Assembly: GCA_013115125.1 (NCBI GenBank)
Contig: JABANN010000357.1
Coordinates: 1-35,842 of the forward strand
DNA: 35,842 nucleotides
Reading direction: 5' to 3'
Origin: Perkinsus olseni
Taxonomy: Eukaryota
Shown: one piece after another, positions 1 to 29,300 of the stretch
Position numbering within the stretch: position 1 is the stretch's first letter
Layout: every line of letters starts with the position of its first letter
Made by a program: the position numbers and the translations under genes
The notes under the pieces: generated by a model
What the model was told of the DNA's origin: nothing
What the model saw: only the letters and a program-made list of their open reading frames with translations
The model's database searches: none

Positions 1-1140
1 GACGAAGATCGACCTAAGCTCGGAGTTGAGGTTTCGGCAACACCCGGGAATGAAGGATTTGTAACGCCCCTAGCGGGAAGTGGCGCTTCAAGCTTGGGCT
101 CTCAAGTACCGAAGAATCCGAATGCCATCGCCGCGAAGGTGTTCCTGCCAAAACTGAAGGATAGATTTCGGTTTCGGGAACATAACGAAATGGTTGGCAT
201 TGTCTTCTATGAGGCGGGGCTTGGTACTTCAGATAGTCAGGGTAACTTCACTGCGACGGTGCCTCAGACGATATTGGTAACCAAGTACCTACAGAGTCTT
301 GAGAGTGTCACCGAGGTGTATGAGCGTGCTATGGACGTCGCCCTACAGACCAAATATCGCTGGAGAGAGATGAGCGATATACTCAACCAGGCCTTTGGGG
401 ACCGGGTCGCGATGCGCACCGAAGTCGCGCGCCGACTCCGAGACCTGAGGTTCCGAGGATTTCAGCATGTCGACGACTTCACCCACCAGATCACCATCAT
501 CACCAACATGTGGATGGCGGTCTACTCGTCAGGGTTCAGTGAGTCGCGTTACCTCGTGGCTAGCTTCCTTGCCAAGTTACCGTCCGATACTCTGGAAGGG
601 GTGGTTAATGGCATCTTGCGGGAGGTTCCCAAGGAGGGTGCTCCGATCTGGGAGGATTATGTCCAGCTTCATAGTACGGCACCTGCTCCGAGATTAGCCC
701 CCTCTTTTGATCTGTGCGAATCGATTAGGTCTGCCTGTAAAGTTGCGGAGGTCACTCATCATCTGCAACCCAAACCATCAGCAGATAGGGTTCGTCAAGT
801 CTCGGATAATCAAGGAGCTTTCCGCCGTGGACCCACTATTACTGAGTGGGCTTCCAAATTTCCCGAAGGGTCGGTAGTGTACTTCCGCACTGATAAGCCG
901 GTCTCTCCAGAGGTTCTCCGCAAGACCTTCAACGGTCTGGGCGCCAGGGAGGTGCGCGCCCACGTTCATAAGCGTGGGCACCGGTTTGGTTTCGCGGCCC
1001 TCAACAACGGAGCCGAAGCTGCCAAGCTGATCCAGAACGGTGTGCCTGCGAGTTCTGATGGGGCGAACCAGGGTCTCCAGATCCGTACATTCGTCCCCGG
1101 AGGCACTCGCGGGAGGCTGCCTATGAAGTCGGGAAACTAA
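1..1140 (+). CDS. gag: Gag-like protein (5' partial) with a C-terminal RRM-like segment
   Basis: Frame 1 is open from base 1 (DEDRPKLGVEV...) to TAA 1138-1140. It has a capsid-like helical stretch (RWREMSDILNQAFGD...RRLRDLRF...VDDF) and lies directly upstream of pol. Confidence 0.8.
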   Translation, partial: DEDRPKLGVEVSATPGNEGFVTPLAGSGASSLGSQVPKNPNAIAAKVFLPKLKDRFRFREHNEMVGIVFYEAGLGTSDSQGNFTATVPQTILVTKYLQSLESVTEVYERAMDVALQTKYRWREMSDILNQAFGDRVAMRTEVARRLRDLRFRGFQHVDDFTHQITIITNMWMAVYSSGFSESRYLVASFLAKLPSDTLEGVVNGILREVPKEGAPIWEDYVQLHSTAPAPRLAPSFDLCESIRSACKVAEVTHHLQPKPSADRVRQVSDNQGAFRRGPTITEWASKFPEGSVVYFRTDKPVSPEVLRKTFNGLGAREVRAHVHKRGHRFGFAALNNGAEAAKLIQNGVPASSDGANQGLQIRTFVPGGTRGRLPMKSGN

Positions 1141-1175
1141 TTGCGGTTCCATCTCCGAGAGGGGGTGGTGGGGCC
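1131..1175 (+). promoter_or_regulatory. Programmed -1 ribosomal frameshift signal
   Basis: Slippery heptamer G GGA AAC (1131-1137) is in gag phase just before the stop. A hairpin CCATCTCC-GAGA-GGGGGTGG (1149-1168, extendable to 1145-1175) follows. The -1 frame is stop-free into the pol ORF. Confidence 0.85.
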
Positions 1176-4100
1176 ACTACTACTAACGATCACTGTGGAC
1201 TGGTTGATCCATGTGACTACGTTTCTGTACCACTTCACTCTTCTTTGCATGATGATCAAACCCCTCATACTGCCAATTCCAGTGCAAGCTGTGATACTTG
1301 CTTTGATTCGTCCAAGAATTGTATTGATTCTTCATCTGTCTATGCATATGAGTATTCGAAATCGTCATCAAACCCCCAAGACCAGGTAGACCCAGATAGA
1401 CCTTTACAGGGCGCATTTTTGGATACTAGTAATGAATCCCCCTTAGTTGGTCCACCTTTCGACTCTGAAATAGATTGTGTGAATTATGGCTCATCAGGGC
1501 CCTTACCGGAAATCGTATTATCCGGATCTCTCGATAACCACAATGTTCAGCTCATTGTTGATTCTGGTGCCGGCTTCTCTTACATCTCTAGAGTAGATGG
1601 GGAGCGTATGAAGTTTACTCCTCGCAAAGCAAGCTCAATAGCCGTCAGAGTCGCCAATGGGGAGCAGGTTCAGGTTTCGGAGGTTCTCTGTGGACAGTTG
1701 TCTCTAAAAGACTCCAATGAGGAAGTCGTAACTTCCCCTCAGGCGTGTGAGATTCGCATCCTACCAATCTGTAGCAGTGTAGGCAGCTCACATGTGCCGT
1801 CTATCCTCTTAGGACGGGATCTTCAGCGGTCCTTCAAATTGGTTATCGATGGTGGCGAAAGAGTATTTTTATCCGGCGTCTGCATATTTGATGCTCAGAT
1901 ATCACGTACAGAACCGTCAGCATGTTCCTACGTGCACGATTATCTGCGATGCATCGAGCCGGCTCCATTACCTGACTTGAGGGTAGCCCAACCGTCGGCA
2001 GACTCGTTTGTCAACTTACCATGTCCCGCGAGTGCTACCCGTCCTCTCAAAGAGTTGTGTGAGAGTCTATGCACTGCTGTACCATTCGGCCCAGACGACC
2101 GAGGATATTCTTCTGAACTCCGATGCTTGCCAGAAGGCGAGGTACCTTTCCCTCCGGGACAACGGTATGTGTGGGCTATTTGCTCTCCGTCGTTACCTAA
2201 ATCCCTGTCCATTCGTCACTACGCCCATCGCCTGTATGAGAAGCTCTGTCCCGAAGCACGGACCTTACACAAAGAGCTGATTGAGGGATACGTTAGTCGC
2301 GGCCTGTGGAAGCCGACAGCAGACGTTCCCCCAGGCTATGCTGAGGGTGAAGTATTCATGGTGGGTGGTCCTGGTAGTGGTGCTACTTCAAGAACGGCAT
2401 GCAAAGGGCGCCTCGTATGCGACCTCAGGGAGACTAATGAGAACCTTCCGCCATCGAGCACATGTACCTTACCCGTTGTCACAATAATAGCCGCTCTGAG
2501 GGCAACTTGCCCTCCGCTAGTGGTCACCGCTGATGTGCACAGCGCTTTTTACATGCTACGGTTGTGCACTTCCTTCCATGCGTCTTCACACAATACTTCT
2601 GCCGATACCAGGGAGACCCGATCATCGTCATCGGTAGTGTCATCAGGCCATTGTCCTCATGACCACCATAAATGTCTCCCCGGCTTTGCATTACATTGCG
2701 GCGACGGAGGGAAGTATCTATCTCATCGGGTATGTTTTGGATGTTTATTTGGTCCCGAGTCGCTTGAATGCTCACTCGGACGACAAATCCAATCGTTTCG
2801 CACTTCACCTATCTGCAATTTGGTGTCAAGTGGGATAGCACACTTTGTCGATGACCTCTTGTTACATTTCGCAATCGAGGATGCATGTAAAATTGTATTC
2901 TTATTATCAGTATTATTATGCTATCTATCCCTGTGTGGATTTGCAATCTCTATTCTTAAATTTGCTATCCTAGTGCACCATTCCGTACACTCCCAGGCGG
3001 CGTCTCTACATACCTACGTCCGGGAGTCCATGCCGGTGCTGGGTGTTCTGCTCTCGTATGACCAGGAAGGACTCGTGGTGGATTGCAATCGTCGACCGGG
3101 GCTTGAGAAGGCCAAACGATTGTTAGAAGCTGAATGCTGGTCACGTCAGACAGTTTACCGCATTGGTGGCGCTCTGGGCGTAGATAAGGCGGGCTTACAT
3201 GCTGAGATCAAGCCGTTATGTGATGCTGCGCGAAGACTGTTCGGACGTATTCCGAGAAGTGTACCATGGACTACTATGTTGAGTGACGGAGATCTGACAC
3301 CGGCGCAACGAGAGTGTTGGCAACATATCCGTGAACAGATGTTGGCCTATATTGATGAGGGTCTAAAACATCCATGTCATCACGGCACCCCAATCCTATC
3401 GTCTGCGACACCCCGATGCTTGGTTCTACAAACGGATTCAAGTGGGTCTGGTGGTGGATACTACATTTATATTCTTCTTCCTTCGGGTGAAGAAGTCCCC
3501 TTGGTGACAGATAGTTGGATATGGTCTCCCCGACAAGCTCGGTATCATTCAAATCGTCGCGAACTCCTCAGTCTCTTTCGTGGAGTTGCCAGTACCGCAC
3601 GAATACTTCAACAACTACAGTCTACTCAATATCAGTCATGTAAGCCACTAGACAAATGGTTGAAGTTGGTTATAGAGTGTGATAATGCTGCTTCCGTTCG
3701 ATGGTGCCATACTACAGCTTCTACACTCAAGGTGACCGCGGTCGAGAGGGACGCCATTATTCGGTTGGTTGGGGCGCTTGGCACTCAACTTCACTCCATT
3801 AAGGCTTTGGTCCCTTATGAGATTCGCCACTTGCCGGGGATATCTAACACAAGGGCAGACGGGTTGAGCAGGGTTCTTGAAGCGCCCATTACTGGTTCCT
3901 CGGCGACCATTCACTCCTTGTTGCGGGCCGTCATTGCGGAGGAGACCACTTCCTCCGAAAAGCAGAAGAAGGGACTCTTCGAAACGGCCGAGGAGATGCA
4001 TGCCGAGGGCGAGCGCGATGCCGATACCGATTGGTGCTGTGATGGGTGCCCTGGGCATCTTCTGCCATCTCCAGAAACCAATGCTATTTATGAGGATGGT

Positions 4101-5558
4101 GTTCGTCTGGTGGAAGAGTGTCTTCCTTTTGTCACGCCCGAGATACAGACAACTGCATTCGTTGACAACTGCTGTTTAACCAGAGATGTATCTTCGGTGG
4201 ACTCTCCATCTCCGAGTTGCCCGCTGGTACGTCGTCTGAAAGAATGCAGCTGGGGGGCGGGGGGTATGTTCTATATGGTTGCGGTTATGCGGTGGTGCCT
4301 TAAAACTTGGAAGACCCTGTCCCAAGACCCTAACTCTACGGCCTCTATTGATTACCCTACGGTATGGGATCGTTCTGATCTGCTGGTGATCGTACGTAGT
4401 GATCAACACAATTACCCTAACGTACCTCCTTGTAGCGAGGTAGGTCGTGGTACGGGACCATATTTTCGAATTGATAGTGTTGTTCACCTTCGATCGGCAG
4501 GACCAACGGGGATTGTAGAGTATAAGCCTTATGTCTCACCGTATTTGCGAGATATTCTCCTCCGAGATATTCACCGTTCCAATGACCACTGCTCTCCTTC
4601 TTATGCTCGTTCCCAACTCCTTACAGGGTATTGCAGTACCCGGGTGACGATAGCTGCTAGACAGATTTGTAGAAAGCAGTGTTCTCTATGTATTCAGTTC
4701 GCTCGTAAGGCTAAATGGACTCTACCGGTCGGGGGGCCGATGTTCGATATTCGTACGCTCCTTACATCACCATCTTATCGGCCTTATGAGGCCATCGGTG
4801 TCGATTATGTCACTGTTGAGGGGATTAAAGTAGTAAGTTTTTGTTGCGTGGCAACACGCCATATGACTCTTATTTATACTCCCACTGAGTCGACGTCGGG
4901 CCTTATAATGGCGTTCCAGGAATTTATGATGCTCTGGGGGACTCCTCGCATAGTCCTGAGTGACCGAGCGTCGTACTTTAAGAGCGTTCTGTGGAATCAG
5001 TTCCTCAAAAGTCACAATATTCTATCCTGGTTGAACGCCTCTGTGGCTCCGTGGGAGGGATCGTACTATGAAAGACTGCATGGCATCGTAAGGACTATCT
5101 TAAGGCCGATGCTCTTGATACCTTATACTCGTCGGATGCTCCGTGAGTTTGATCCTCGCAGTGTCCAAGATGTTCGTTCGCTGCGGTTGCTGTTGTTAGA
5201 GGTATCTCTGCTGTTGAACACTCGCCCGCTCACTATTGATTGCGAGGACGGGGTTATCACTCCCGACTCTCTGGTACAAGGATATACTCGGTCTACGTCT
5301 AGTACCTCTTCACCGAGTCCCATTGTTGAGACGGGTGATGCTGTACCGCCAGCACCAGACTGTGTTGGTGCGGCGGCTGTACCTATAAGTCCTCCTGCTG
5401 CAGTCCTTCCTTCTAGAGGACCTGATACTGCTCCGCGTCGGGTGGCGGCTGTCCGTAGGGTGTTCCTGGATTACCACTTCCGCCGGTTGAAGGAGCGTAG
5501 TAACGCTCAGTTTCATTCTAACGGGCATTGGTTCTCCCGTGTTCATCCAAGCCGCTAA
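1137..5558 (+). CDS. pol: Pol polyprotein: aspartic protease, reverse transcriptase, RNase H, integrase
   Basis: PR: LIVDSGAGFSYI...ILLGRD. RT: GRLVCDLR, ADVHSAFY, FVDDLLL. RH: LQTDSSGSGGG, RRELL, ECDN, HLPGISNTRADGLSR. IN: HRSNDH...CSLC, GVDY, LSDRASYF, APWEGSYYERL, LNTRPL. Confidence 0.93.
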   Translation, partial: LIAVPSPRGGGGATTTNDHCGLVDPCDYVSVPLHSSLHDDQTPHTANSSASCDTCFDSSKNCIDSSSVYAYEYSKSSSNPQDQVDPDRPLQGAFLDTSNESPLVGPPFDSEIDCVNYGSSGPLPEIVLSGSLDNHNVQLIVDSGAGFSYISRVDGERMKFTPRKASSIAVRVANGEQVQVSEVLCGQLSLKDSNEEVVTSPQACEIRILPICSSVGSSHVPSILLGRDLQRSFKLVIDGGERVFLSGVCIFDAQISRTEPSACSYVHDYLRCIEPAPLPDLRVAQPSADSFVNLPCPASATRPLKELCESLCTAVPFGPDDRGYSSELRCLPEGEVPFPPGQRYVWAICSPSLPKSLSIRHYAHRLYEKLCPEARTLHKELIEGYVSRGLWKPTADVPPGYAEGEVFMVGGPGSGATSRTACKGRLVCDLRETNENLPPSSTCTLPVVTIIAALRATCPPLVVTADVHSAFYMLRLCTSFHASSHNTSADTRETRSSSSVVSSGHCPHDHHKCLPGFALHCGDGGKYLSHRVCFGCLFGPESLECSLGRQIQSFRTSPICNLVSSGIAHFVDDLLLHFAIEDACKIVFLLSVLLCYLSLCGFAISILKFAILVHHSVHSQAASLHTYVRESMPVLGVLLSYDQEGLVVDCNRRPGLEKAKRLLEAECWSRQTVYRIGGALGVDKAGLHAEIKPLCDAARRLFGRIPRSVPWTTMLSDGDLTPAQRECWQHIREQMLAYIDEGLKHPCHHGTPILSSATPRCLVLQTDSSGSGGGYYIYILLPSGEEVPLVTDSWIWSPRQARYHSNRRELLSLFRGVASTARILQQLQSTQYQSCKPLDKWLKLVIECDNAASVRWCHTTASTLKVTAVERDAIIRLVGALGTQLHSIKALVPYEIRHLPGISNTRADGLSRVLEAPITGSSATIHSLLRAVIAEETTSSEKQKKGLFETAEEMHAEGERDADTDWCCDGCPGHLLPSPETNAIYEDGVRLVEECLPFVTPEIQTTAFVDNCCLTRDVSSVDSPSPSCPLVRRLKECSWGAGGMFYMVAVMRWCLKTWKTLSQDPNSTASIDYPTVWDRSDLLVIVRSDQHNYPNVPPCSEVGRGTGPYFRIDSVVHLRSAGPTGIVEYKPYVSPYLRDILLRDIHRSNDHCSPSYARSQLLTGYCSTRVTIAARQICRKQCSLCIQFARKAKWTLPVGGPMFDIRTLLTSPSYRPYEAIGVDYVTVEGIKVVSFCCVATRHMTLIYTPTESTSGLIMAFQEFMMLWGTPRIVLSDRASYFKSVLWNQFLKSHNILSWLNASVAPWEGSYYERLHGIVRTILRPMLLIPYTRRMLREFDPRSVQDVRSLRLLLLEVSLLLNTRPLTIDCEDGVITPDSLVQGYTRSTSSTSSPSPIVETGDAVPPAPDCVGAAAVPISPPAAVLPSRGPDTAPRRVAAVRRVFLDYHFRRLKERSNAQFHSNGHWFSRVHPSR

Positions 5559-5724
5559 GTCCATTGTGCCAGCACGCATTTTGGAGGCCTACCCGGCGCG
5601 TGATGGGGTCGTTCGTCGATATAAGGTGAGATTCCTTCGGAGTGATCATGAAACAGTGATCAGTCATGCTAATATTGCTGCTGCTTCCCCGTGGGAATCC
5701 TTAGTTTCCGATGACGATCTGTGA
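5491..5724 (+). pseudogene. Integrase C-terminal tail (Bel/Pao DUF5641-like) in the +1 frame relative to pol
   Basis: IGSPVFIQ...PARILEAYPARDGVVRRYKVR resembles the Bel/Pao VGDxVL...GRIxEVxPGxDGxVRVVxV tail but is out of frame with pol. Confidence 0.7.
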
Positions 5725-5799
5725 TTCGTTCCGGTCCTCTCTCTACTGATGTATTTCTCTTTATTTCTGTTATATAGCCTGACTGATCAGGGGGGCGTA

Positions 5800-6049
5800 T
5801 ATTGATGCTCGATCAGTTAGTTTGGTAGAGATTGTCTCCCTCTGTACATGCGTGCAGATGGTCTCCTGTGCTAGCGTGCTATTGTGCTAGCGTGGGATTA
5901 TTATGAGCCTTGAGTATTGAGCGTCGATAGCTGTTAATTCCGTAGCCATCTTGGCTCAAGGTCTCAGTGTACGTTTGGTTGACGCATCTCTCCAGCTATG
6001 TCGGGTCGTGTTGACTCCAGTAACCACCCAGAGGCATCGAACAGCAACA
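5800..6049 (+). repeat. 3' LTR (~250 bp)
   Basis: Follows the PPT. Start TATTGATGCTCGAT matches the reverse complement of the end, TGTTGCTGTTCGAT, at 11/14 ungapped; the LTR ends ...CAACA. Homology to a host paralogous locus begins at 6050. The 5' LTR is outside the window, so there is no direct-repeat confirmation. Confidence 0.72.
5939..5960 (+). ncRNA. Spliced-leader exon (Perkinsus/dinoflagellate type) with GT donor, embedded in the LTR
   Basis: TCCGTAGCCATCTTGGCTCAAG fits DCCGTAGCCATYTTGGCTCAAG (Perkinsus SL ACCGTAGCCATCTTGGCTCAAG) and is followed immediately by GT at 5961-5962. Confidence 0.9.
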
Positions 6050-6462
6050 CTGCTGGTGTGCAGCTTGCTTCGATCCCACGTGATTCTGAATGTCTAACCC
6101 CGGCACGAGTCGTCGTCGACTATAGTCAAGCATGCGATTCAGGAAATAGTGATCAAATGATCACCGATTGCGGAAGAGAATACTGGAAGGCTTGTATTAT
6201 GGGAGTTCATCAATCTTACGACCGTGAGACAGTCTCGTTGAGACATACGTTTCATCTACTGCGCCGAAGAGTACATCAGAGGGCTCGGGATTTGCTGCCG
6301 AATGCCCCCTTGATTCGAGAAACCCGGTGGTAACGGGACAGCCGCTAGCCGGTGAACGTGATATCGACAGCACCTCGTCATCAAGCGCACAGCTATTTTG
6401 ACGAGCAAAAAACTCAACGTTACAACTGGAGGCGAAAGAGCCTGCCGGCAGCCGGCGACAAC
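6050..6462. repeat. ~400-bp dispersed repeat, copy 1 (paralog of 12936-13330)
   Basis: Colinear shared blocks: CTGCTGGTGTGCA, ACGTGATTCTGAATGTCTAA, AGCCGCTAGCCGGTGAACGT, CGTCATCAAGCGCA, AAAACTCAACGTTA. Confidence 0.9.
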
Positions 6463-6832
6463 TGCGTCTTCCTCGTTTCAGATTTTCCGACACCCACAGA
6501 GAGAGTTAGCGGTCGCTCAAGGACCTCAACACTGGCGCCGCTGAAGAATAAAGTTCGTATTCTTTGCTGTGCGGCGCCAGCGCAAGATTCAGCCGCAGCG
6601 TTTCATCTTGTGATATGCTCCGAGAATTTCTAGCTTAGAAATTCTAAGCACGTGGGATATCGACTCTTGATCCGTTCCTTTGCGCATTCGTAAATGGTTA
6701 CAACACAGCAGGCTAATTTATGAGCTCCGTCGCTCAAACAAAATGCTATCTGGAGCTGTGGACCGGCCTTATCTTTACGCGCAGTATCACCTCAGACTTT
6801 CAGGTTGAGTCTTTTCTTCAGTCTTCTTCGCC

Positions 6833-9423: not shown

Positions 9424-12400
9424 ATGAAGACGTCAAGAGAGAAATCCGTTGCAGCGTTTGAAACCAATGGCAGTGAACATGTAGAGATTTCTTGCGCGAT
9501 CTATACTAATCTCATGGTGAAAGTGACAACTCCAGTAAAGAAACAGGAGAGTCTCTCCCCCGAGACGACAGCCGACGTCGGAGACAGCAACAACGGCTGC
9601 ATGGTACGACAACAGCTAGCGACCCTCGGGTTCGGTGCCGAGAAGATGAAGGCGGGCAAGAGGTGAGGAGGTTCATGTCCGGAATACCTTCTGTAAACAT
9701 TTTGATTGAGAATGGCTGATCTGGAACACAAAACCCAAGCTTGCCATCTGGAATTCAATCTTTCATCTGCTGTCTTTCCATCATCCGCCACTTAGCGTAG
9801 CTTCAGCGTAGCTCCTTGTCGAAGCAAGATAAAATCAGTTGAATATACGCCACAACGAGCTCCCTCTAATATGAACATACTCTGAGTTTACTAGTTTCCA
9901 TGCTGATTGTCAATCAGGGATTGATAGGCTTGACGTTGACTCAGCTTTCAGGTTGATGATAGAGCGTAAAAAAGTAGCGAACCCTAATTGAATGGAAGTA
10001 TTGAATCTTTCCATTAAAGCCTGTGAACACTGTAGTAGTGCTCACGCATAGTGCGCAGTGGTATCGCGATTACTGATGACTCATGAATCGTCTACAATTG
10101 AGGGGAATCAGCTCGTCATTTAGTGGCCTGCATGTTGACATATAGTCCTGGTAGGTTTGCAAAGCGCACAGTGTGGGTGTGGAGAGAACTACGGCAAGAC
10201 GCCCTCGCAGCAGCTCTGCGTCATCTCACCAGAAGTGAGATCCCGAGCATAGTACTGGTCAACAAGCTACAGAAGATGCCAGAGTTTGGGAGCAAATGTG
10301 GACTGGTCACGGCGGTGCGGAGGAGCCTTGAATCGCGATCAGCAGGGAAAGAATGCAGCTGGTTGCCGGAAACATACATCTTGCCTGAAGTGAGGACCCA
10401 CAGTCACCACGATACCACGGAACGTTCTTTTCAGGAAAACAAATCGGCTTCAGGGGCGGTGATGAGGTCGACAGAAGAGACCTGCTGGATCGTGAAACCC
10501 GCTTCGTTGAACAGGGGCATGGGCATAAAAGTAAGAAGTTGATGCTTCGCGGAGGGACAAATTCTTGGCAGAAATCAGCATGATCCTTTTCTTGATGGGG
10601 TGACTGAGGCCTCAGCGTTAAACGTACAGCTAGGGTAATTGGTCTTGTGAGCATCTTATAGTGAAGTTATATAGAAGCGCCAGACGCACGGTGTGAAAGT
10701 CCCTAGGGAGAGTCCCCAACAACTTCCAATGCGGCACAGGGCAAACGATGAGATCAATACATAGATTTATATAATGTAGAATGTGAATATTATATAGTAT
10801 ACCCTCATAATAGGGTCTCTCCGTAGTTCTCGGGCTTGTGATACGACTTGCGACCTGGCCATGATAGAGAACGGTGATTATCACCGGGTGATACCATCAG
10901 ATACTCGATCGGAAGAGTTCACTGGAGTATTTGAGAAGACCTCCACAGGGCCGATCCCCCAAGGGAGTCATTCAACGATATTTGAGCGAACCACTTCTCC
11001 TGGATGGCCGTAAATGTGATCTTCGAATGTATCTGCTGATAACGAGGACAGAGCCCTTGAAGGTGGGGCAGCACGATGGCTTCTGAACTACCGCGCTAGA
11101 TTGTCACGCAGGCCTACTTTGCCCGAGGGTATGTACGGCGTACCTTGGCCAAGTACTCTGAAAACATCTCTGATCGGCCAGCGCATCTGACGAATCAAGC
11201 GGTGCAGAAAAAGCTCGGAGGTGACTACGAAACTCGCAAACAGGAATCAACGTGGTAATCACGGCTGCTTGAGGAGCTCCCGCCTGATTTTTTGCAGGAG
11301 TATCCTTCAACTCTGCGAATACCTAGCATCAACCTCGCCGGGTGAGGGGGGCGACGCTGACTGGTGGTTCAATTCCTGGTACTGTTCTGAGTTTGAACCC
11401 ATCGTGATGGAGATGGCCACGGTCACATTAGATGGAGCTCGCAGTTCCTTAGTCAGGCAAGGCTACTCCTCACTCTTGTCATTCGCTCGAGTGACATTAG
11501 CAGGTCGGTAGTGCAGCGAAAAGCTGGTACCGTTCTCGGAGGAGAATTCTTCGGGTACGACGTTCTCCCTGGAGCTGATCTGAGGCCGTACCTCCTCGAG
11601 TTCAACTCCAATCCAGCGATCTTCACCAATACTGATATCCTTCAAGAAGTGGGTGCCTCTTCTAAGCCCGCGATTTTTACATTTTTTTCTTTCGCTTTTG
11701 GATAATGCCACATTAATTTGAGTGTTTCCAAATTTCTCGAATCGTGCCAAGTAGATCTTCGTGGAGCCCAATTTGAAAGGACTTTTCTGAAATCGAGCAC
11801 AAGTCGACTCAACAACTAGAGTAGAGAGGGCCGAATACTTCCACACACATCGTGTTCGCGGTGAGCAGTCTAATTCGTGGTAGAAATAATACCGCCTCTG
11901 TCCAAAGTTTACTTCAAGATGTTATAAGTCAAGGTCTCAGGTGCAATGTGCCATCACATAATTCCTCGGGGTAGGTATAAGTTATTTTGCCGTAGCCATT
12001 GTAGTACGATGGCACAAGAACGAGCCCGAACTGCTCATCGTTATATTTTTATTACGCACTGTTCCGGCAAGACTGCAAGTCGATGTTCGAGCGGCGATCT
12101 GGAGTAGCTGCAAAATCCCATGAAATTTCGATCGCTAGAACGCTGGAGCAACCTGGATACAACGAAAGGGAAAGTGATTTGTCCAGCAGGTCGCTGTGCA
12201 ATCCTTTAGTCGCAGCGGTTCGTTATTCGTATCTTGTGGTACTCACCAGCGAGTTCACTCAGGTGATCCCTCCCCTTATCAAGGAAGGTGTCCAGCTAAT
12301 CGAGAGTGATAATCATGTTGGACCAACTCAGTTGTCTCCCAATCTTTGGCATCTTATAGTTGATGACCAAACAGGATACGTTTTCAAGCGGCGTGGCTGA
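9424..12400 (+). CDS. Tubulin-tyrosine ligase-like (TTLL family) protein, multi-exon; start codon uncertain
   Basis: Motifs VGDSNNGCMVRQQL, WLPETYIL, WIVKPASLNRGMGIK, IQRYLSEPLLLDGRKCDLRMYLLI, FFGYDVL...PYLLEFNSNP across GT-AG exons; stop at 12398-12400. Confidence 0.88.
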
Positions 12401-12857: not shown

Positions 12858-12930
12858 TGCCCAGACCCAGGATCGAACTGAGGACCTCCTGACCTTCAGT
12901 CTGGCGCTCTCCCAACTGAGCTATCTGGGC
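12858..12930 (-). tRNA. tRNA-Phe(GAA)
   Basis: GCCCAGATAGCTCAGTTGGGAGAGCGCCAGACTGAAGGTCAGGAGGTCCTCAGTTCGATCCTGGGTCTGGGCA, a 73-nt cloverleaf with one A-A mismatch in the anticodon stem. Confidence 0.92.
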
Positions 12931-12935
12931 TGAAT

Positions 12936-13330
12936 CTGCTGGTGTGCAAGCTGCTTCCATCCGACGTGATTCTGAATGTCTAATCCGGCACTACGAGCCG
13001 TCATCGACGATAGTCAAGCGTGCGGGTATCACCAATTGCGCTAAGGAACATTGAGATGCTTCTATTATAGGAGTCGATCGATTGATCAGCTCATTCGACT
13101 ATGAGACAGTCTAATCGAGGCCTACGTGCTATATACTACGCCGAAGCGCACATGTAAGTGATCAGGACTTACTGCCGCTTGCCCTATCGATTCGAGAGCC
13201 CGGTGGTGACGGGAGAGCCGCTAGCCGGTGAACGTTATATCGGCAGCACAACGTCATCAAGCGCAGCGCTCATTCGACGAGAAAACTCAACGTTAGAACA
13301 GGAGGCATGAGAGCCTGCTGGCGCGCAACT
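12936..13330. repeat. ~400-bp dispersed repeat, copy 2 (5' flank of tRNA-Phe)
   Basis: Colinear homology with 6050-6462; separated from the tRNA-Phe 5' end by 5 bp (TGAAT). Confidence 0.9.
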
Positions 13331-14188: not shown

Positions 14189-15363
14189 ATGATCATGAGC
14201 GTCCTCGTTTTCTTCACTTTCATCGCTCTGTTCGGCGAGTCCTGCGGTGAGAAGCTAATCAGAGTTGAAACCATCTACTCTAAGCCCGCAGCCGATGCGA
14301 CATGGGCCGAACTCCTTGGTATCGTTTGGGTTGACTTCCAACCTGTTAAAGCCGTTGTCGACACTGGGGCCTGAGCTCAAGGCCCAGTGTCACTGTGGCA
14401 CACTTACTCCTTCTTTCTGTGGAAGGAGTGGTATGATAGAGTTGCTCCAGGAGGCTGCGATGGAGTCATCTATGGCTGCTACGGTTGCTCCTCAGCCGAG
14501 TGTCAGCAAGCACCTCGCAAGACTTTCAGGTATCACAATGGCAAGGAAGTGACCTTGTTCCCCCACGTCGGGGTGGTGTTGTTCGACGTCAACTGTGAAC
14601 GCTTCGTAACCCCTCATGTGACTTTCGGATTAGTCGTTGGACCGAAGAACAGACCCTGGGTTTCGCTTGGGCTCTCGCTCAAGAAAGTCGCCAGTGAACG
14701 GTATGTACCTCTGATGGACCAGCTTCTACCACGTAAGGGTTTCGAGGGTCTCATCGATAAGAAGGCATTCTCGTTCTATCTGGACGAGGGAAGCCTCCGC
14801 GGCGAGCTCATACTCGGTGTTGATGATGAGAGGAAGCACGATGGTGCTCTTGAATACGTCGAGGCTATCCACCTTGACTTTGCCCCGCCGGGCATTAGTA
14901 TAGCCGGCTTGGGCATCGGGAATGATTCGAAGAACCGAATCGAAGTCACGTCGACGTGGCACGTCGAGGACGATGGGGAATGACACGTCGACGACGTGTC
15001 GAGTGTGGCGTTCCTGGACACGGGCTCGAGCAAGATGCACGTACATGAGTCCCTCAAGCCGCGAGTACTCGCCCTCCTTCAGAGCGCTGGCACCAAGGCC
15101 GTGGTTATCAAGGAGTCTGGGTCCTTCATCGTCGCCTGTGAAGACGTGAAATACCTGCTCTCAATCACTTTTTTCATGAAGGGTTTGCAAGCCGATGAGT
15201 CTCTGTCCATGTGTTTCCCGATGCCCTGAAAGGGGAGCGACCAGATGGCAGCTGTGTGTTGGCGCTGGCCTTCGGTAAAGTGTGGTATCTTGGGTTGCCC
15301 ACGGTCGTCGGGAAATACGTCTCGGTGAACGAAACTCGCATCGGTTTGGGCAAGGCGAAATGA
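14189..15363 (+). pseudogene. Pepsin-like (A1) secreted aspartic protease pseudogene
   Basis: Signal peptide MIMSVLVFFTFIALFGESCG; both catalytic motifs (AVVDTG, AFLDTGSS); FSFYL...GELILG; C-terminal WYLG...RIGLGKAK. In-frame TGA at 14372 and 14981 and a frameshift near 15199. Confidence 0.85.
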
Positions 15364-17899: not shown

Positions 17900-19683
17900 C
17901 GTCGGTTCGAGCTTCATTCTTCCTGCGTCTGACTCTAAGAATCTTAGAGGCCTGCTCTTTGAGCCGAGTCCGATCGAAGCCGCAGTTGTGGTACTTCAAG
18001 TAGATGCTGCGCAGAATCCCAACCATCAATGAGCAACTCGCCGGTCGAAGCACGCGTGCGCTAAGCGTTGACCGCTATGCGCACGTGTCAGAATCGACGA
18101 GAGTGTGCGCTCGGGAGACAACATCGGGGCACAGCACGACCAGCAAACCCGTCGCGGAGCGATTCAAGGTCGCTGCCTCGATGCCCCAGGTTGAGCATCG
18201 AATCAGTCCATCGCTATCGTAGATACTGTGTCAAGGACCACGTGTCACCATCAACGACGATTGAAGACACCCTCGACAGGTCACCTGTTACCATTGCCCT
18301 CGAGATGGATGTGCGCGGCTCCGAGCCCTGGCTTCCACTGCCATACGAGCCGACTCCTGCATCTCTCTGCCTGGAAATCAGTTGAAGGAAGCTCAAGACC
18401 CCCGCAGGCTTCTTTCAAGCGATTGTGACGTAGCTACAGAGTGTTGTTCCTCGCCAGGTTATAGATGCCCTCGAGAGATAGATCAAAGCAGGCTGTGTCA
18501 CGAGAGAAGGCCAAAGAAGGGCTTCCCATTCAAAGTCGCTTGTCTTGAAAGGTATCCATCAGGGGCAGGCGCGGGTTGTTGCGAGGCTCTCAACCTGGAA
18601 TCCAGGCCTTTCGAGTAACCAGCTCGATCCAGGTCCTGGATCAAGCTGGTTACTTTCAGGCGGCTCGCTCGCCACCAGGAGGACGCTGGAGTTTTACCCC
18701 GTTGCGTCGAACGCTAGTGTTAACGATAACACAAAGCGATATGCCCTTAAGTACCGCTTTTGCGCGTGGAACGCGAAATGTGTTATACACAATGGGTGTA
18801 AAACGCGTGATGACTTCGCGCTGTTACGTACGAGACTCGCAAACTTTTTTCAGCGGGGTCTCGCGTTGTGAAAGCTGATACTCTCCCGACTACAAATCCA
18901 ACAACAGAGGTCTGCATCTACGTGATAACTATCACAGCCTATACCCGTGTGTTGGTGGCTCCGGGTGGCGTTCTTGAGGGTTTCAACGCGTTATAACACG
19001 TGCTGATGACCTCTTGAAAAAACGCGTCTCTGCGTTTTATACTGGCGCTAGCAGCGCTGCGCTACCACGCAAAGTGGGATGGGTAGGCGACACCACGTCG
19101 CGGTTTTCGCGTCGCGCGTGAAACTGCTTTACATATTTTGTCGCCGAACCTCTGCTGTACCAGAACACCACAGGCAATTTGATAGCGGCAAATCTCAGGG
19201 GAAGGAGATTCTCCTTAGGAGTGCTCATGAATTTCACCTCATACCTCTCACAGCACGAAATATACAAGACGTGAGTTCTTCACGTACATCCGAACTGGAA
19301 CACAACAAACTTGGTTGCATCAAGTACCGAACGGCGGGACATAGGAATGACTGGAGCGTTCGAACCTCGAACCCGGGTAATGGGTGACGTACTGCAAGAT
19401 GCTCCAGAAGCGACATCAATCTCAATCTCGTCGAACTTATTAGACGGCAGAAGTGCTGTTTTTTCGAAAAAAAGTTGATCGAATATGTTCTTCCCCACGG
19501 TGGCATAATGTACAACGACATGCTCTAAGGACACCGGGAGATAGGAAAAACCTGAGGAGGTCTCCCGAGAAGCGACGGTCCTTTTTGCGATCCCAGGTAA
19601 TCAGCCTGCACACCTCAACGAAAGAGCTCGCGAATAACAAATTCGAAACTTCAAGTCATAGGAGTGATAGCGCGGCACTTAAT

Positions 19684-21190
19684 TCACAAGTCGTGCTCCT
19701 TCCCGGTGGTGAATACTCTACAGCAGGGAGCTCCTGAGAGAACGGCAGCGTGAATCACCATGGGCGAGTCATCGAGAAGAGCCCGTTGAACCTTACAATA
19801 GTAAATATAACAGCTGTATTCCCAGTATGGTTGAGGAAACAATCTGCAAGCTGGGCGGTGAAAAGAGGGACCTGGGTGGAGCGCACCACAAGGATTTCCC
19901 AGCAGTATCTGTCGCAGTAAGCGGTCGATTCTCACCAGGTTGGTCTCCTTTATCCCAAGCCGTTTGAATCTCTCTTTGCTGGCCACACACCTCAGTCTCT
20001 GAGGTATGGCCTCCGATATCTGCACATCGAATCGGTCAGACCGACCGTTCTTATGCTTGCGACCGTGTACTCACCTTTCTGTTGAAGGAGAGGTCGAGCA
20101 TCTCTAGTTGATTGCAGTTCTCCAGGATGCTGATCACACCGTCGTCGCTCACTGATCGGCATCTGGACAGCTTCAACCGTCGAATTGGCCGTGGCAGACT
20201 TTTCGCAAGGAGCGACAAGCCTGCGAAAGGCTCAAAGCTCGAACTTCCGTACGGTCGTCTTGCACATTCACCTGCATCGTCGATTGATGTATCAGACAAG
20301 TCGAGGAACTCCAACTCGCCCAGACTCGACAGCGCCGACACCAGTGCCTCCGAGGAAGAGGACCACCTAACACGACCGTGGAGGCGACACAGTGGTCAGC
20401 CCAGTTCCAGCTCACCCGCTCAGGTTTAGCGACTTCAGACTAGTCAGCTTGCTGAGATTGTCCGGCGATGGGCACTCACCTTCCGGGTTGGACAGGTCGA
20501 GTCGCAACTGACAGACGATGTCGCTTCCTTGCAGAACAGGAGACGTCATACCAGGGATGCATGCAAGCGGTCGGCTATCATGTCAATGCCGCACTGCCCG
20601 ATCTTCCCCATGTCCAACCTCGGCAGGGAGACCTCCCCCAGGCAGGAGGGTGAGTCCCTCAACGACATGGTGATGTTGGAGATGCTCTCTGTCGTCATAC
20701 TCGAGGTGAAGCGACGGCGGAGGGCTCCTAGGGAGTTGATGGGCGGAGCCCAGCTAGTGATGGAGGTGTCCCACCAACGCGGATTGTCTTCAACTTTTTG
20801 CAGTTTCGCCGAATACCGGCGAATGTCGCATCCGCAGCAGCCAGAGGAATATCAAACAAGTCGATATGGGAGAGAACAGCACACCTACGAAATTGAGAAC
20901 ACTCAAACAGCGGCTCCGGTAGCTCAGTCGGTAGAGCGCGTGCCTTTTACGCACGTGATCGCGGGTTCGAGCCCCGCCCGGAGTGTTTCGCGCAGCTACC
21001 TCTTCATGAACATGTTAATGGCTTTCCCGGTTAACTTCCCACATCCTCTTAGACAGACCTGCGTGATATGCTTGTAATATTCACTGCTGGGCAGCTGAGC
21101 CATTCGGATGAGCATCTCAGGTAGTAGCGTGGTGAAGTCAGCGAGTACCACACGACAGACTCCACGCCGCCGACGGAAAGTCGTCAAACT
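19684..21190 (-). CDS. Leucine-rich repeat protein (RNI-like/cysteine-containing LRRs), multi-exon; 5' exons may extend to the ATG at 23118
   Basis: Spliced LRRs: ITQVCLRGCGKLT, LSHIDLFDI, CKKLKTIRVG, LLRLDLSN, LKSLNLSG, LEFLDLSDTSIDD, IRRLKLSRCRSVSDDGV, CNQLEMLDLSFN. Confidence 0.8.
20913..20985 (+). tRNA. tRNA-Lys(TTT)
   Basis: GCTCCGGTAGCTCAGTCGGTAGAGCGCGTGCCTTTTACGCACGTGATCGCGGGTTCGAGCCCCGCCCGGAGTG, 73 nt; perfect anticodon stem CGTGC/GCACG around CT-TTT-AC. Confidence 0.93.
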
Positions 21191-23409: not shown

Positions 23410-23995
23410 AGAGCACCACCTTCCGGTGTGTAAAGACTACTGAATCAGGCGGGTATCCTGTGGATATTATCCACCGCCCGCAGCAGGTCACTCGGCAGGC
23501 ATGTGTCAGAAACTCTCCTTTCTCATTGAGGGGCTGCAAAGGGAAGTGTGATCGCTTCCCTTCGGTAACAAAGCCGATATTCAGATGGCCACTACAAACA
23601 TCGTGAGTACACCGCCCCGAAGTCTCCGAGTCGACGACTTTATCCGTGTGATCATCAGAGGTCATCGGTGGCAGCAGACAGTATTAAACCAAGCGGCGAG
23701 GTGACCCTTCTGGTATCAACATCAACTCTTCTGCATGCTTCATTGTGCCTGACACCTCTCCGGCGGCTGCAGAGATCTCAGACAAGCAAACAAGGGGGAG
23801 CGCAGCACACCTGCCAGAAAATAAGGCCAGTTTACTCTATACCCCGGTTGCTCATCCCGCAGACTGCGGGAGCGCGCTGCACGTGCCTTGTGCCCTTCGA
23901 GTCAGCCCGTGTCGACTCGAGCCTCTTCAAGAGTGTTTCGTATCGCTACCTCTTCATGAGTATGTTGATCTTTTCCACGTTGAACTCTCCCGGGC
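23410..23995 (-). pseudogene. Decayed duplicate of part of the LRR gene, including a degenerate tRNA-Lys (+ strand, ~23842-23935)
   Basis: 23931-23991 aligns with 20981-21040 (GAGTGTTTCG....GCTACCTCTTCATGA..ATGTT). CAGCACACCT and CACCTTCCGG are colinear. CCCCGGTTGCTCA resembles the tRNA's CTCCGGTAGCTCA. Confidence 0.7.
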
Positions 23996-25450: not shown

Positions 25451-26367
25451 CTCGCGGTGCCCGCCGTGTGCAACTCCGGCACGCCTGTTGCCACTGTGGG
25501 AGTTTCACACGAGTAACTAGGAGAAATGTGGTTGAGCCCTACCTGAGAAGTTCACATCCCACCAGGTTTCATCCAGCCTCCGTGGTCTGAGGGACAGCGT
25601 CAGAAGCGTTGCGTAGCCGAACTCCCTGGTGCCGCTCAAAGCTCATGAAACCTAAGACGGAAAACTGAGCACCTGAACGAGGTGTCCTATGGAGCTTGTT
25701 CACTGACATAATCAGCATGCTTACTCAGGCGATGGTCCAACAGCAAATTCGAAACTTTAGGTCATAGGAGTGATAGCGCGGCACTTAATTCGCACTATAG
25801 GAGCGACCGAAGGAGGGAAGAGACGCAACACTTTCTTCGGTCAAGTCACACTTCACGATTCAGCAGTCTATTAGGCATAGGCTGCGCCTCGCGACCGTCT
25901 TGGTTCGTAAATTTAAAACAGGGATGAAGGCCATCTGTATTGCCTAAAGAATACCCAAAACGCGAGCTTTCAAATAGCATGTGGCTCGGAAGTTCAATCA
26001 GCATAGTGGTAGAGAAGTTACCCGAGTAAGAGACGCACAAAAAAGCACGAAACGGGAAGCTCCCCTCGCGTCGCAATCATCGTGAAACACCGCACGTCAG
26101 GTCGAAACAGTCACGAATGTATCTGGGAGGGCAAAAAAAATATGGCCATCATCCCATCCCTCCCATCATCCCCTCCCACGGTGGGAGTCCCACCCGCCAA
26201 ACTATCCTCCCTTGGTTACGAAGAACAACAGGATTCGGCCAGAATGAAACTTACGTGAGAACTTAAAATACCGTAATCTACCATAGAAAATATCAATTGT
26301 TATCAGTCAATTTATAACGTTCATGCGGGACGCCCAGGTAGGGCACCCTTAAGGCACCCGACCTCAG

Positions 26368-29300
26368 TCAAAGCCTCGCCGTTAAACCCAAGCTGGATCT
26401 CTCTGGTGGTCGTGGCGATGACAAGGTTCCCCTCGGGCTGCCGTCCGAATGTGTCGAACTAAGCCGTCTTCGAGTCATACCAACAATTTCTTCCTCGTTC
26501 AGAGAGGCAATGCGAGCGCTGTTTTCCGAGCCAGCGTGGTTCTCCCAGAGGCCGCCAGCACTCGCCTCAGATGAATCATCAGATGACATCCCCTCATCTC
26601 CTGACCTCCCATCTTCGACCTCGGTAACCATGGCATGCGACAGTGATAAAGATTCCCCATAAGAGCCTAACGTGAAAAGCGGCCTACCAAATCGATCAGC
26701 AGGGCGCGCGCTACCTCTATAGTCCCTCTTCTTGCTCGCTTTGCGTTCCTTATTGATGTAGTAAGTGGTCATCAGCCCCTTGCCCTTTACTTGCATCACG
26801 CCTCTACAGGTCAAGTCGAAGCTGTCTCGCACCTCGTTGGCCGTATCCTCCGAGCAGTGCACGCGCATCTCAGTGCCGTGGGATTCCATCCTGATCAAGA
26901 GTCAAGATAGATTCTTCGCAGCGCGTTACTCAAGCACGATGAAAGGTAGACGATACAACCATGAGGGATGGACGTGGTTTTTAGGGAGATTCTTTGATCT
27001 GTAAGAAATTCCCAGAAGGAACTGAATTACGCTGACGACGGTAGACTGGTGACACATAGTGAGCAGGAATTTTCGAAGCGTATTGGACGCATGACCATTC
27101 AGTGCAACGGGCCGTGGTGGAACCGTTACGTATCGAGTTCGATCCCATCATGTGACCAGTAGGGATGGCCTTCCTCACCTCGAGGCTGTGTTGACGCAGT
27201 CTCCCCAGACATCATAAATGAATTTCTTCCGGCCAATCACACCAGCGACGCAGTGGCCCGAATGGATACCAACTCGTATCCTCAGCGGGTGGCCCAGCTG
27301 ATCCACGAGGTTGCCGTCCTCCACTTTGGAAGGGTCCTGCAGGGCCTGACGATGACAAGAGCTGTAGACGCCATGGCTCACGTAGTATCGAGAGCAAACC
27401 AGGCTAATGGTTGGTTGTGGAATTTCGTGGCGCGCGACATGGGCTCTGTTCGTTGCCATCGCGATGGATAACACCGTTCGTTTAACACACAAAAACCCCG
27501 GGAATTCCCAGTCCATCAGCTAACTGATATTTGCGAGCTACTAACAGCGTCAGTATGACGAATAGACTTCTGAATGTTGCAATTAAAAAGTAATTCCTCA
27601 TTGACGGTTATCGCAGAGAAAACCACTACTTTGAAATTAGATCGAGTACGATACGACCACTACTGTAGCTCACATCGATCATCATGAGGCCCATCCTGGC
27701 CGTAGCATGGGCATGCATCGGATTGTGTCGTGGCAGACCGGCAGCAGCCATGTACGCATCGCCAATGGTTTTTATCTTCTCCAACCCGCACTCCTCCGCG
27801 ATATCGTCAAACAGCGTGAAGAGTTCATTCAGTAGTTGGACGAGTTCCTCCGGTTCGATGCTCGATCCAATAGCGGTAAACGCCACCACGTCAGAAAACA
27901 AAATCGAGACTTGGTCGTAGGCCTCCGCAAAGCCCATCGCCATCTGTCGTGTTAGTAGAGTGCCGCCTTCCGTTGGCCCTCCTTGTACTTGTCTCAGCTG
28001 ATCGTCTTGTATGTCTTTGAGTTGTTGGATGATTGGTAACGGCAATACATTCATGAGCAATCGCTCTGACCGGTCTGACTCCGTCGCAAGAGTCATCGAA
28101 AGGACATAATCCTTCCTCACCAGCAGTTCAAACATGTACCGAATCGTCGCCAAAACAGCGGTGGGAGCGACTATGATAGCGACACTCCGTAAAGGTTCGT
28201 GAAAGAAAATAGACTGCTCGAAAGGGTACGTCCCCAAGGCGATCCAACGCGCCGAGAAAAGGAAGGCCAGAAGGTAGACACTGAGGTAGAGAATGTGGAT
28301 GAACCTGAAAGCCACTATGGTAACAAATTGTATCCGGTTTGTCCATAGTGGATAGTACCACGATTCACAACGGTACTATCTACTATGGATATTTCCCAAA
28401 ACGTTTGAGATAGCACGCGGACATGTAACCGTGCGGGATCGTCGCGTCACGGCCATGCGAGAAATTCCGCCACAAAGAAACTATCGTCGAGTGAACGCGT
28501 TTGTAGGAGGCACGGCGGAGAAGGCCGCGTAGCGATAGCTTTCGGTGGCCTGTAATGCTTCAAGACCCTCGGGAACAACGGGAAATCGGCGGAGCGATGC
28601 TGTGAAAACGCCCACCTTAGTTTGAAGAGGACTATTGAGAAGGCCATAAGGACACTATAGGTGAGAGCTTCTTGTAGGGGCCAAATATAATACTTCAGAA
28701 TCTGATGAAAAACGGCAAGCATCGACACCGCGCCACGAAAATGGCATGGCAGACAATGACGAGCAACTGGAATGCCGAGGTCCTCCAAATACCAACTTTT
28801 CCCGAAATCACTATAAATCTTACCAAGGGGCTCCAGTACATCCAGAAAAGAACAGCGCTGCCAGAGAGAGCGGCCAGGAGGAGTTGAATGGGAAAGTAGT
28901 TCTCAACGAACCATAGAGAATCCGCCAGGAAGATGACCTCGATCTGAGAAGGAGAAATGTCATCCGCAGGGATCGATCCCGGGACCTACTGATAGTTTCA
29001 CGATAGCTGCAAAGAAGAATAGTGCCGTGGGCTCAGTCATGATGACACGGACGAAGGTGACGCTAGGATGGTTCGATCGGAGTATTTCATATTGAAGCCA
29101 GCAATAGAGGACAATTAGACAGGCCGTCAGAAGGAAATACCAATATGGGTACCTCCGCGCCCTCTCCGCGAAATGCACCTGAGAACAGCTAAGCCAGTAC
29201 TTTACCAGGTTTGACAGTCGAATGACCCGGGTTCGATCCTACCTGGAAGCCTTTCTCCAGAGAAGCATCATCAGCAAACTCCAGCGTAAGCCAATGCGTC

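Follow-up and report, generated by a model that had tools for sequence, protein, structure and literature searches.

A DNA-encoded spliced leader as an inherited part of the long terminal repeat in a Ty3/gypsy-like retrotransposon family of Perkinsus

In trypanosomatids, the site-specific retrotransposons SLACS, CZAR and CRE, which are without long terminal repeats (LTRs; non-LTR type), insert into spliced-leader (SL) RNA genes and are in this way physically tied to the leader sequence. The same tie is found in the element described here, a Ty3/gypsy-like retrotransposon at one end of a 35,842-base stretch of Perkinsus olseni DNA (contig JABANN010000357.1, positions 1 to 35,842; hereafter the window) but, unlike SLACS or CRE, this element is of the LTR type, the leader forms part of the element itself, and next to the element lie a protein-coding gene and probably a tRNA neighbourhood. 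A second point of comparison is provided by the relict leaders of dinoflagellate and Perkinsus retrogenes, attributed to 'mRNA recycling', which share with the present locus a DNA-encoded leader, a short 5' untranslated region (UTR) and a start codon, as well as a presumed origin by reverse transcription of trans-spliced RNA (PMC3229502, PMC7245778, PMC3101222). They differ in that the leader reported here lies inside the LTR of an autonomous retrotransposon, is replicated in both LTRs and occurs in many copies, and in that it is a single full-length copy, whereas truncated tandem relicts were seen in 15/48 of the environmental contexts considered below. Retroelement RNAs with a host leader at their 5' end have also been described for Cer1 of C. 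elegans (PMC3315495) and for Hydra transposable elements (PMC12220107), although in these it is trans-splicing that supplies the leader, and their LTRs do not encode it; in Cer1 the leader occurs on the spliced 2.4-kb RNA only and is absent from the 8-kb genomic RNA (PMC3315495). Finally, the Echinococcus ta-TRIM solo LTRs resemble our locus in that an LTR lies upstream of a host trans-splice acceptor and carries a GT able to be a donor (PMC4558846). They differ from it in that, going by the text of that report, no leader is encoded in their LTR, and cis use of the GT is at our locus a candidate.

A DNA-encoded leader linked to an LTR was not found in full-text searches of the literature (including PMC9911081, PMC12014239, PMC3942190 and PMC5776459; figures and supplements excepted), and by this search the present case would be the first host spliced leader found as a heritable part of an LTR. 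Relict leaders in DNA and T-initial, intronless SL-like sequences were already known (PMC3101222); what is new here is the gag ATG inside the LTR, the retention of the leader in sibling copies and 5' LTRs, and the match of the SL-like primers of 2011 to the LTR. The leader is a built-in, inherited LTR part of a multi-copy, Ty3/gypsy-like Perkinsus family with sister families in P. marinus. With moderate confidence, we interpret it as a DNA-encoded leader of the relict type whose fixed place is where the 5' UTR of the element begins, probably on the border between the unique 3' region (U3) and the terminal repeat (R). An element that encodes its own leader offers a natural test of the role of the leader sequence in mRNA as against the act of trans-splicing, and bears on the interplay of reverse transcriptase and leader-tagged RNA in a lineage shaped by 'mRNA recycling'.

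The leader in the LTR and its retention in sibling copies

The 22-mer TCCGTAGCCATCTTGGCTCAAG was found by exact match at positions 5939-5960 of the forward (+) strand, on which the element and the host gene behind it are also read, with GT directly 3' of it at 5961-5962. It is the sole match in the window, even when up to 3 mismatches are allowed, and 0/100 dinucleotide-preserving shuffles contained any match to the 22-mer. The published leaders of P. marinus are ACCGTAGCCATCTTGGCTCAAG (22 nt, PmaSL1) and a 21-nt form without one T (PMC3101222; PMC9399869); compared with PmaSL1, 21/22 bases are equal, the sole difference being nucleotide 1, which is T here and A in PmaSL1. The leader starts at base 140 of the 250-base LTR, in the same sense as gag-pol, and is a single full-length unit; a search of the window that tolerated up to 3 mismatches gave no truncated tandem relicts of the kind that start after the AG at leader nucleotides 6-7. 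A preliminary description, made from the sequence alone, had placed a complete leader followed by GT about 140 bp into a 250-bp LTR, in gag-pol sense, and had recognized the 22-mer as the leader trans-spliced in Perkinsus. The first statement was confirmed by the sequence match and the LTR limits, and the second holds, against the published P. marinus leader, apart from nucleotide 1.

The limits of the LTR were drawn from contigs of the DNA runs X1 and X7, of run X6 (marked 'RNA?') and of the RNA-library run X12, aligned to positions 5450-6350 at 80% likeness (23, 23, 17 and 1 contigs per run; 25 of the 64 pieces were listed). Summed over the two DNA runs, depth was ~82 up to 5790, 900-5300 within 5791-6038 and ~91 from 6101 on, and in X7 the bins from 5605 to 5790 were without cover. 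In both runs loose contig ends cluster before 5800, where the flanks are variable, and behind 6048-6050. Because of this depth step, of the loose ends and of a paralogous flank whose homology starts exactly at 6050, the multi-copy 3' LTR is assigned to 5800-6049 (250 bp), with TG at 5803-5804 and a terminal CA at 6048-6049, and the leader thus falls within the true LTR. The polypurine tract AGGGGGGCG, as read from the sequence, occupies 5789-5797 and ends 2 nt before the LTR. Neither a second LTR copy nor a second leader copy was found within the window, which itself holds the 3' LTR only.

The 5'-LTR context was nevertheless seen in contigs of all 4 runs, which extend from the leader through the LTR end into a candidate primer-binding site (PBS) and gag, i.e. 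5' LTRs with the leader at the same place. In the loose contig ends a PBS-like stretch beginning with TGG starts 3 nt past the LTR end; compared with the two tRNAs of the window it agrees at 7/19 and 9/19 bases, which is no match. Among the 31 variable places listed (5837-6019), 2 fall within the leader (5951 and 5955) and none at 5939, 5961 or 5962, and no variant reaching at least 5% was present at these last three positions among the aligned contigs. Position 5938, directly before the leader, is G in most copies and T in the window. Among the contigs listed, single ones diverge exactly before 5939, at 5970 and exactly after 5960, the last of these with CG behind the leader.

Further evidence came from P. 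marinus, where the gene model P0004 starts M-SVAILAQGLS-L-MSGRVD, residues 2-11 being the translation of 5939-5968. Since P0004 thus translates the leader, a P. marinus 5' LTR must hold the T-initial leader and GTCTCAGT upstream of gag. The spacing between leader and gag is shorter there (11 nt by the gene model), reflecting either a deletion or a modelled intron. An assembly artefact was rejected, as 4 runs from 3 studies gave contigs with the leader-bearing LTR, which is also evident from proteins and primers of P. marinus. The leader is thus a heritable part of the LTR, common to sister families and to two Perkinsus species; the suggestion that it would recur at the same LTR position in siblings was borne out by the sibling contigs, the 5'-LTR contexts and P0004, and nothing that the preliminary description had counted as speaking against it, such as a leader absent or degenerate in 5' LTRs and siblings, was encountered. 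The joint conservation of leader and GT, which it had proposed to check, stood for the leader and, within the aligned copies, for positions 5961-5962, and failed in sister families, where the leader is followed by AT or TG (primers in Table 1 of PMC3101222) or, in one contig, by CG. The GT at 5961-5962 therefore appears to be a family-specific accident rather than a maintained donor. For annotation, it follows that matches to the Perkinsus leader need to be checked for an LTR before they are called SL RNA genes or retrogenes, and that gene models such as P0004 translate the leader wrongly.

From the leader to gag, and SL-like sequences elsewhere

The leader is followed by a 5' UTR of 37 nt (5961-5997) without ATG and then by the gag start codon, the first 17 codons of gag (MSGRVDSSNHPEASNSN; 5998-6049) being encoded by the LTR and matching the start of P0001. 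ATGs occur in the LTR at 5805, 5848, 5858, 5903 and 5998, that is, four in the 139 bases 5800-5938 and none from 5939 until 5998. A search for gag homologs among 7208 candidates gave 4, of which 2 have the N-terminus, both MSGRVD. In P0001 (P. marinus, 481 aa, gag 77% identical) the N-terminus reads MSGRVDTRERQEAPDINIVATAAGS, i.e. MSGRVDTRERQEAPDIN-IVATAAGS, and the loose ends of other copies behind 6049 read TAGTGGCGACAGCGGCAGG..., which in frame gives IVATAAGS as in P0001. As judged from this agreement, the ATG at 5998 is the gag start, and the frame reads on through the LTR end and the PBS-like TGG stretch. The gag of Ty1 likewise starts within its LTR. The preliminary description had set the GT behind the leader against relict leaders, which are followed by UTR; this contrast falls away, since a 37-nt UTR and the gag ATG do follow, and leader, UTR and start codon together make up the layout of a relict SL.

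This layout could be traced to a set of published sequences. Zhang et al. (2011; PMC3101222) reported more than 100 P. marinus genomic sequences with the leader but without a recognizable intron, of which 'most started with T'; these SL-like sequences were, in that account, placed in tandem arrays, with downstream regions that varied. Two of the primers in Table 1 of that study, PmaSL-L2-like-F1 and F2, match the window exactly (5945-5966 and 5951-5972, respectively). The L1-like F1 primer aligns to the LTR over 22/24 bases, with AT and not GT after the leader, the LongSL2 probe over 18/19 bases with a 2-nt gap, and the S-like probe shortSL1 over 16/18 bases across the gag start ATGTC..GTCGTGTTGAC, while the S-like primers have the 21-nt leader and then TG (PMC3101222). 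As the alignments of the L1-like, L2-like and S-like classes all cover the stretch between the leader and the start of gag, several families have in common a leader, a short UTR and a gag ATG. On the strength of these alignments, the orphan SL-like sequences, at least the three probed classes, are LTRs of a group of gypsy-like retrotransposons. The T-initial base, the missing intron and the lack of a small RNA had already been reported, 3' rapid amplification of cDNA ends (RACE) and Northern analysis of the L2-like class having given no clear small-RNA product (PMC3101222). In the running text of that paper (figures and supplements excepted) the sequences are regarded as non-functional SL RNA-like sequences, with no tie to an LTR, gag or a retrotransposon. 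The present alignments give a concrete identity to the T-initial SL-like sequences of 2011, more than 100 in number, or at least to the three probed classes.

Leaders encoded in DNA were also found in environmental sequences: 57 metagenome contigs (L001-L057), representing 48 distinct contexts, contain the 21-mer, a leader core of the Perkinsus type with TCTT. In 35 of these contexts the 21-mer is preceded by T, in 5 by G, in 4 by A and in 3 by C, and in 1 the contig ends there; after it, GT occurs in 3/48, close to the chance rate, and CC in 15/48, most of which resemble the start of a truncated relict leader. The gag and pol of the present element were found in 0/57 of these loci by tblastn, the LTR matching only across the leader itself, and the 10 longest open reading frames (ORFs) downstream of environmental leaders (10/48 contexts) contained no retroelement domain. 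Scans of viral contigs with gag and the 21-mer gave no matches. Overall, T-initial leaders encoded in DNA are common in related environmental organisms, and the LTR-borne form was seen only in Perkinsus. Two single contigs deserve mention: L038, in which two leader-like matches lie 7.3 kb apart, was considered as a possible LTR pair and rejected, no LTR pair being present; and L044, where A and the leader are followed by GTACAAG... and later by TTTTTGGGG, has the appearance of a true SL RNA gene from an unknown relative.

RNA evidence and alternative explanations

Run X6 was shown to be RNA by one of its contigs, which joins 6193 to 6482 across a GT-AG intron. Its depth is ~2212 inside the element against 25-66 in the flank, the corresponding DNA values being 82 and 91. 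The element is thus expressed and strongly represented in RNA. Two X6 contigs, representing two LTR variants (depth 1900 and 211), run through U3 and the leader and end at 5967, and a third runs from the leader to the LTR end (5939-6049; depth 490); the corresponding X1 contigs from DNA span 5837-5968 (depth 531) and 5943-6049 (depth 509), so that the depth ratio of the two contigs is 3.9 in X6 (1900/490) against 1.04 in DNA (531/509). The contigs were presumably built from 31-base words, with which the 30-base overlaps between pieces agree. If so, the absence of a bridging word 5938-5968 would fit RNA 5' ends at 5939, and the RNA-specific break one base earlier than in DNA would hint at RNA 3' ends at 5967. 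The segment 5939-5967, consisting of the leader and 7 nt, is accordingly a candidate R region, and a start of transcription at 5939 with a genome-encoded SL is plausible on these weak hints. A TATA-like motif, TATTAT, lies 40 nt upstream of the leader (5899-5904) as a candidate promoter element, and the single contigs that diverge exactly before 5939 and exactly after 5960 are a further hint. In one X6 contig an adapter is followed by the leader tail GCTCA+AG at the AG of 5815-5816, which points to use of an acceptor for trans-splicing inside U3, ~15 nt from the start of the LTR.

The course of events that we favour would be as follows. Most likely, reverse transcription of an SL-capped, i.e. 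trans-spliced, RNA of the element at one time left the leader established on the border of U3 and R, and it has since been inherited within the LTR. The gag-pol RNA would then carry the host leader sequence in cis, its transcription starting probably at or very near 5939, while in the 3' LTR cleavage and polyadenylation may take place ~7 nt past the leader, which would make the leader the core of a short R repeat. A bolder version, which we regard as speculative and on the whole unlikely, is that R is essentially the host leader, with RNA running from 5939 to poly(A) at 5967, so that the element would be disguised as mature host mRNA without trans-splicing and would also gain homology for first-strand transfer; if true, the disguise would serve leader-dependent cap handling, export or translation, and 3' and solo LTRs would, as a by-product, become the mobile units considered below.

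Several observations weigh against this account of the leader. Contigs cannot map RNA ends, and the T/G variation at 5938 would also lead one to expect a contig that starts at 5939. The RNA-library contig of X12 is unbroken across the whole LTR into gag. One X6 contig has the leader tail joined at 5816/5817, in U3, and this junction means that some LTR-containing RNAs begin, or are processed, upstream of 5939. The leader substitutions at 5951 and 5955 occur in one multi-copy subfamily (one divergent contig per DNA run, depth ~556 of ~5600), and the density of variable places in the leader, 2/22, is not clearly below that of U3 (20/102) or of the downstream part (9/59). Constraint on the leader within this species is, on these counts, not proven. 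Nucleotide 1 is T in every aligned contig copy, whereas the leader and the SL RNA genes of P. marinus are A-initial according to the published sequences, and T at this position is explained neither by simple retro-copying nor by gene capture. Ongoing refreshing through A-initial trans-splicing should leave A-initial copies, and none at 5% or more were seen among the aligned contigs. As a speculative possibility, the T at nucleotide 1 and the G that most copies have at 5938 were considered as traces that a modified first base and the cap may have left in reverse transcription. The reference for the leader is that of P. marinus rather than of P. olseni itself; the contig begins inside gag, so that the 5' LTR of this copy lies outside the window; and placing a leader in the LTR in the proposed way would need a non-homologous first-strand transfer.

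A rival explanation is that the leader is a passive fossil, copied once into an ancestral LTR and neutral since, with RNA starting elsewhere, for example by read-through and trans-splicing at 5816/5817; the leader would then be internal 5' UTR sequence without a role. The leader tail at that junction, the X12 contig across the whole LTR, the two substitutions in one subfamily and a density of variable places not significantly below the surroundings all agree with it. Yet if RNA began at 5817, three ATGs (5848, 5858 and 5903) would precede that of gag, while from 5939 there is none before gag; the leader is intact in sister families with a diverged spacer, and both this contig and P. marinus have it; and the 5816/5817 junction is expected anyway from processing of the 3'-LTR part of full-length RNA. 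We consider a neutral leader rather unlikely, and less probable than its fixation as the head of the 5' UTR.

A different role would fall to 3' and solo LTRs if these started transcription at the leader and the GT at 5961 were cis-spliced to the acceptor at which the adjacent host gene is trans-spliced, here the AG at 6062-6063. Such LTRs would, if this is true, be mobile units that combine a promoter, a leader mini-exon and a GT, cis-splicing to host acceptors like that at 6062-6063, and the mRNAs so produced would differ from trans-spliced ones only at leader nucleotide 1 (T versus A). The geometry fits, as leader and GT are followed after 103 nt by an acceptor that is in use: exon 1 of the host gene (6064-6193) starts 14 nt past the LTR, and in an X6 contig the AG at 6062-6063 is joined to the leader tail CTTGGCTCA. 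Echinococcus offers a precedent, the transcript of a solo LTR being cis-spliced there to an ancestral trans-splice acceptor (PMC4558846). Against this, the X6 contig has the last 9 leader bases only, from which cis and trans are indistinguishable, the GT is not kept in sister families, and the paralogous acceptor at 12936 and beyond adjoins a tRNA gene without any LTR. We consider a cis-splicing cassette improbable.

Least of all does the evidence favour the proposal in the preliminary description of a captured SL RNA gene, or its alternative of each LTR as a mobile SL donor whose mini-exon and 5' splice site supply leaders in trans, which we judge very improbable: a full-length leader followed by GT and an intact exon-internal candidate Sm site, ATCTTGG (read against PMC3101222), agree with it, but the donor context is G|GTC and not the G|GTA of the GGTA motif that, together with a CT4-7 terminator, is conserved in Perkinsozoa SL RNA genes (PMC9399869), the 250-bp LTR has no T-run of 4 or more, nucleotide 1 is T and not A, the leader is followed by AT, TG or CG in sister families, and the published 3' RACE and Northern tests, with primers that match the LTR exactly, gave no clear product (PMC3101222). 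Alignment of the primers for the introns of real L- and S-type SL RNAs, which match the LTR only over CTCAAGGT (8/26 bases), likewise revealed no intron similarity after the GT, no Rfam family matched, a permissive search of 5700-6200 giving a chance snoRNA match only (E 8.5), and the predicted RNA fold of 5939-6049 is no better than that of shuffled sequence (z -0.01). The GT is therefore the sole likeness to an SL RNA gene, and these signals together with the published small-RNA tests make a mobile SL donor unlikely. By its sequence features, the leader is of the DNA-encoded relict type and is no SL RNA gene.

The element body, its flank and other features of the window

The gag ORF (1-1140, 379 aa) is incomplete, as the contig starts within it and roughly 100 N-terminal aa are missing, and it has no Pfam family at E<=0.01. 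Its C-terminus (~900-1040; residues 402-446 of P0001) is RRM-like, with KRGHRYGFATF and a Pfam RRM_1 match at E 0.009, below the cut-off of that family; P0001 bears the UniRef label 'RRM domain-containing', and no zinc knuckle was noticed in the gag C-terminus. If true, this RNA recognition motif (RRM)-like module would be an unusual nucleic-acid-binding module in a gag. The open pol frame begins at 1059, in the -1 frame relative to gag, so that it overlaps the end of gag. The heptamer G GGA AAC (1131-1137), of the form X XXY YYZ and abutting the gag stop codon (1138-1140), is a candidate slippery site and, judging by its form and place, likely serves -1 ribosomal frameshifting.

The pol ORF (1059-5558) is very divergent and has the Ty3/gypsy order of protease, reverse transcriptase, RNase H and integrase. 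By Pfam, the aspartyl protease scores above the cut-off, RT_RNaseH (726-822) and rve (1179-1259) fall below theirs, and there was no match to RVT_1; with residues counted in the frame from 1059, DSGA lies at 168, FVDD at 596 and an HHCC-like pattern at 1172. No pol homolog was obtained at E<=1e-10 among proteins of 790-2515 aa (7999 candidates scored, from a set of 5.8 billion proteins), and no PDB sequence matched pol (1245-5555) at E<=0.01. The retrotransposon lineage is either very divergent or poorly annotated.

Behind the LTR, exon 1 of the host gene is followed by the GT-AG intron 6194-6481, which is removed in the X6 contig. The flank 6050-6449 has a paralog, 73% identical, at 12936-13322; only 5 nt separate the start of this paralog from a tRNA-Phe gene on the reverse (-) strand (12858-12930), whose 5' end faces it. 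It may thus be that the element, whose 5' flank falls outside the contig, has inserted within a few bases of a tRNA gene, on its upstream side, in a Ty3-like choice of target. A direct repeat, 73% identical, at 20967-21036 and 23917-23986 overlaps the 3' end of a tRNA-Lys gene (20913-20985), and another, 91% identical, lies at 19633-19688 and 25739-25794. Fragments of host genes elsewhere in the window comprise tubulin-tyrosine-ligase-like, eukaryotic aspartyl protease and adenylate/guanylate cyclase exons (10132-10539, 14387-14980 and 26371-28315), and an NCBI model on the contig is named 'Nitrogen permease regulator 2', a name at odds with the cyclase domain.

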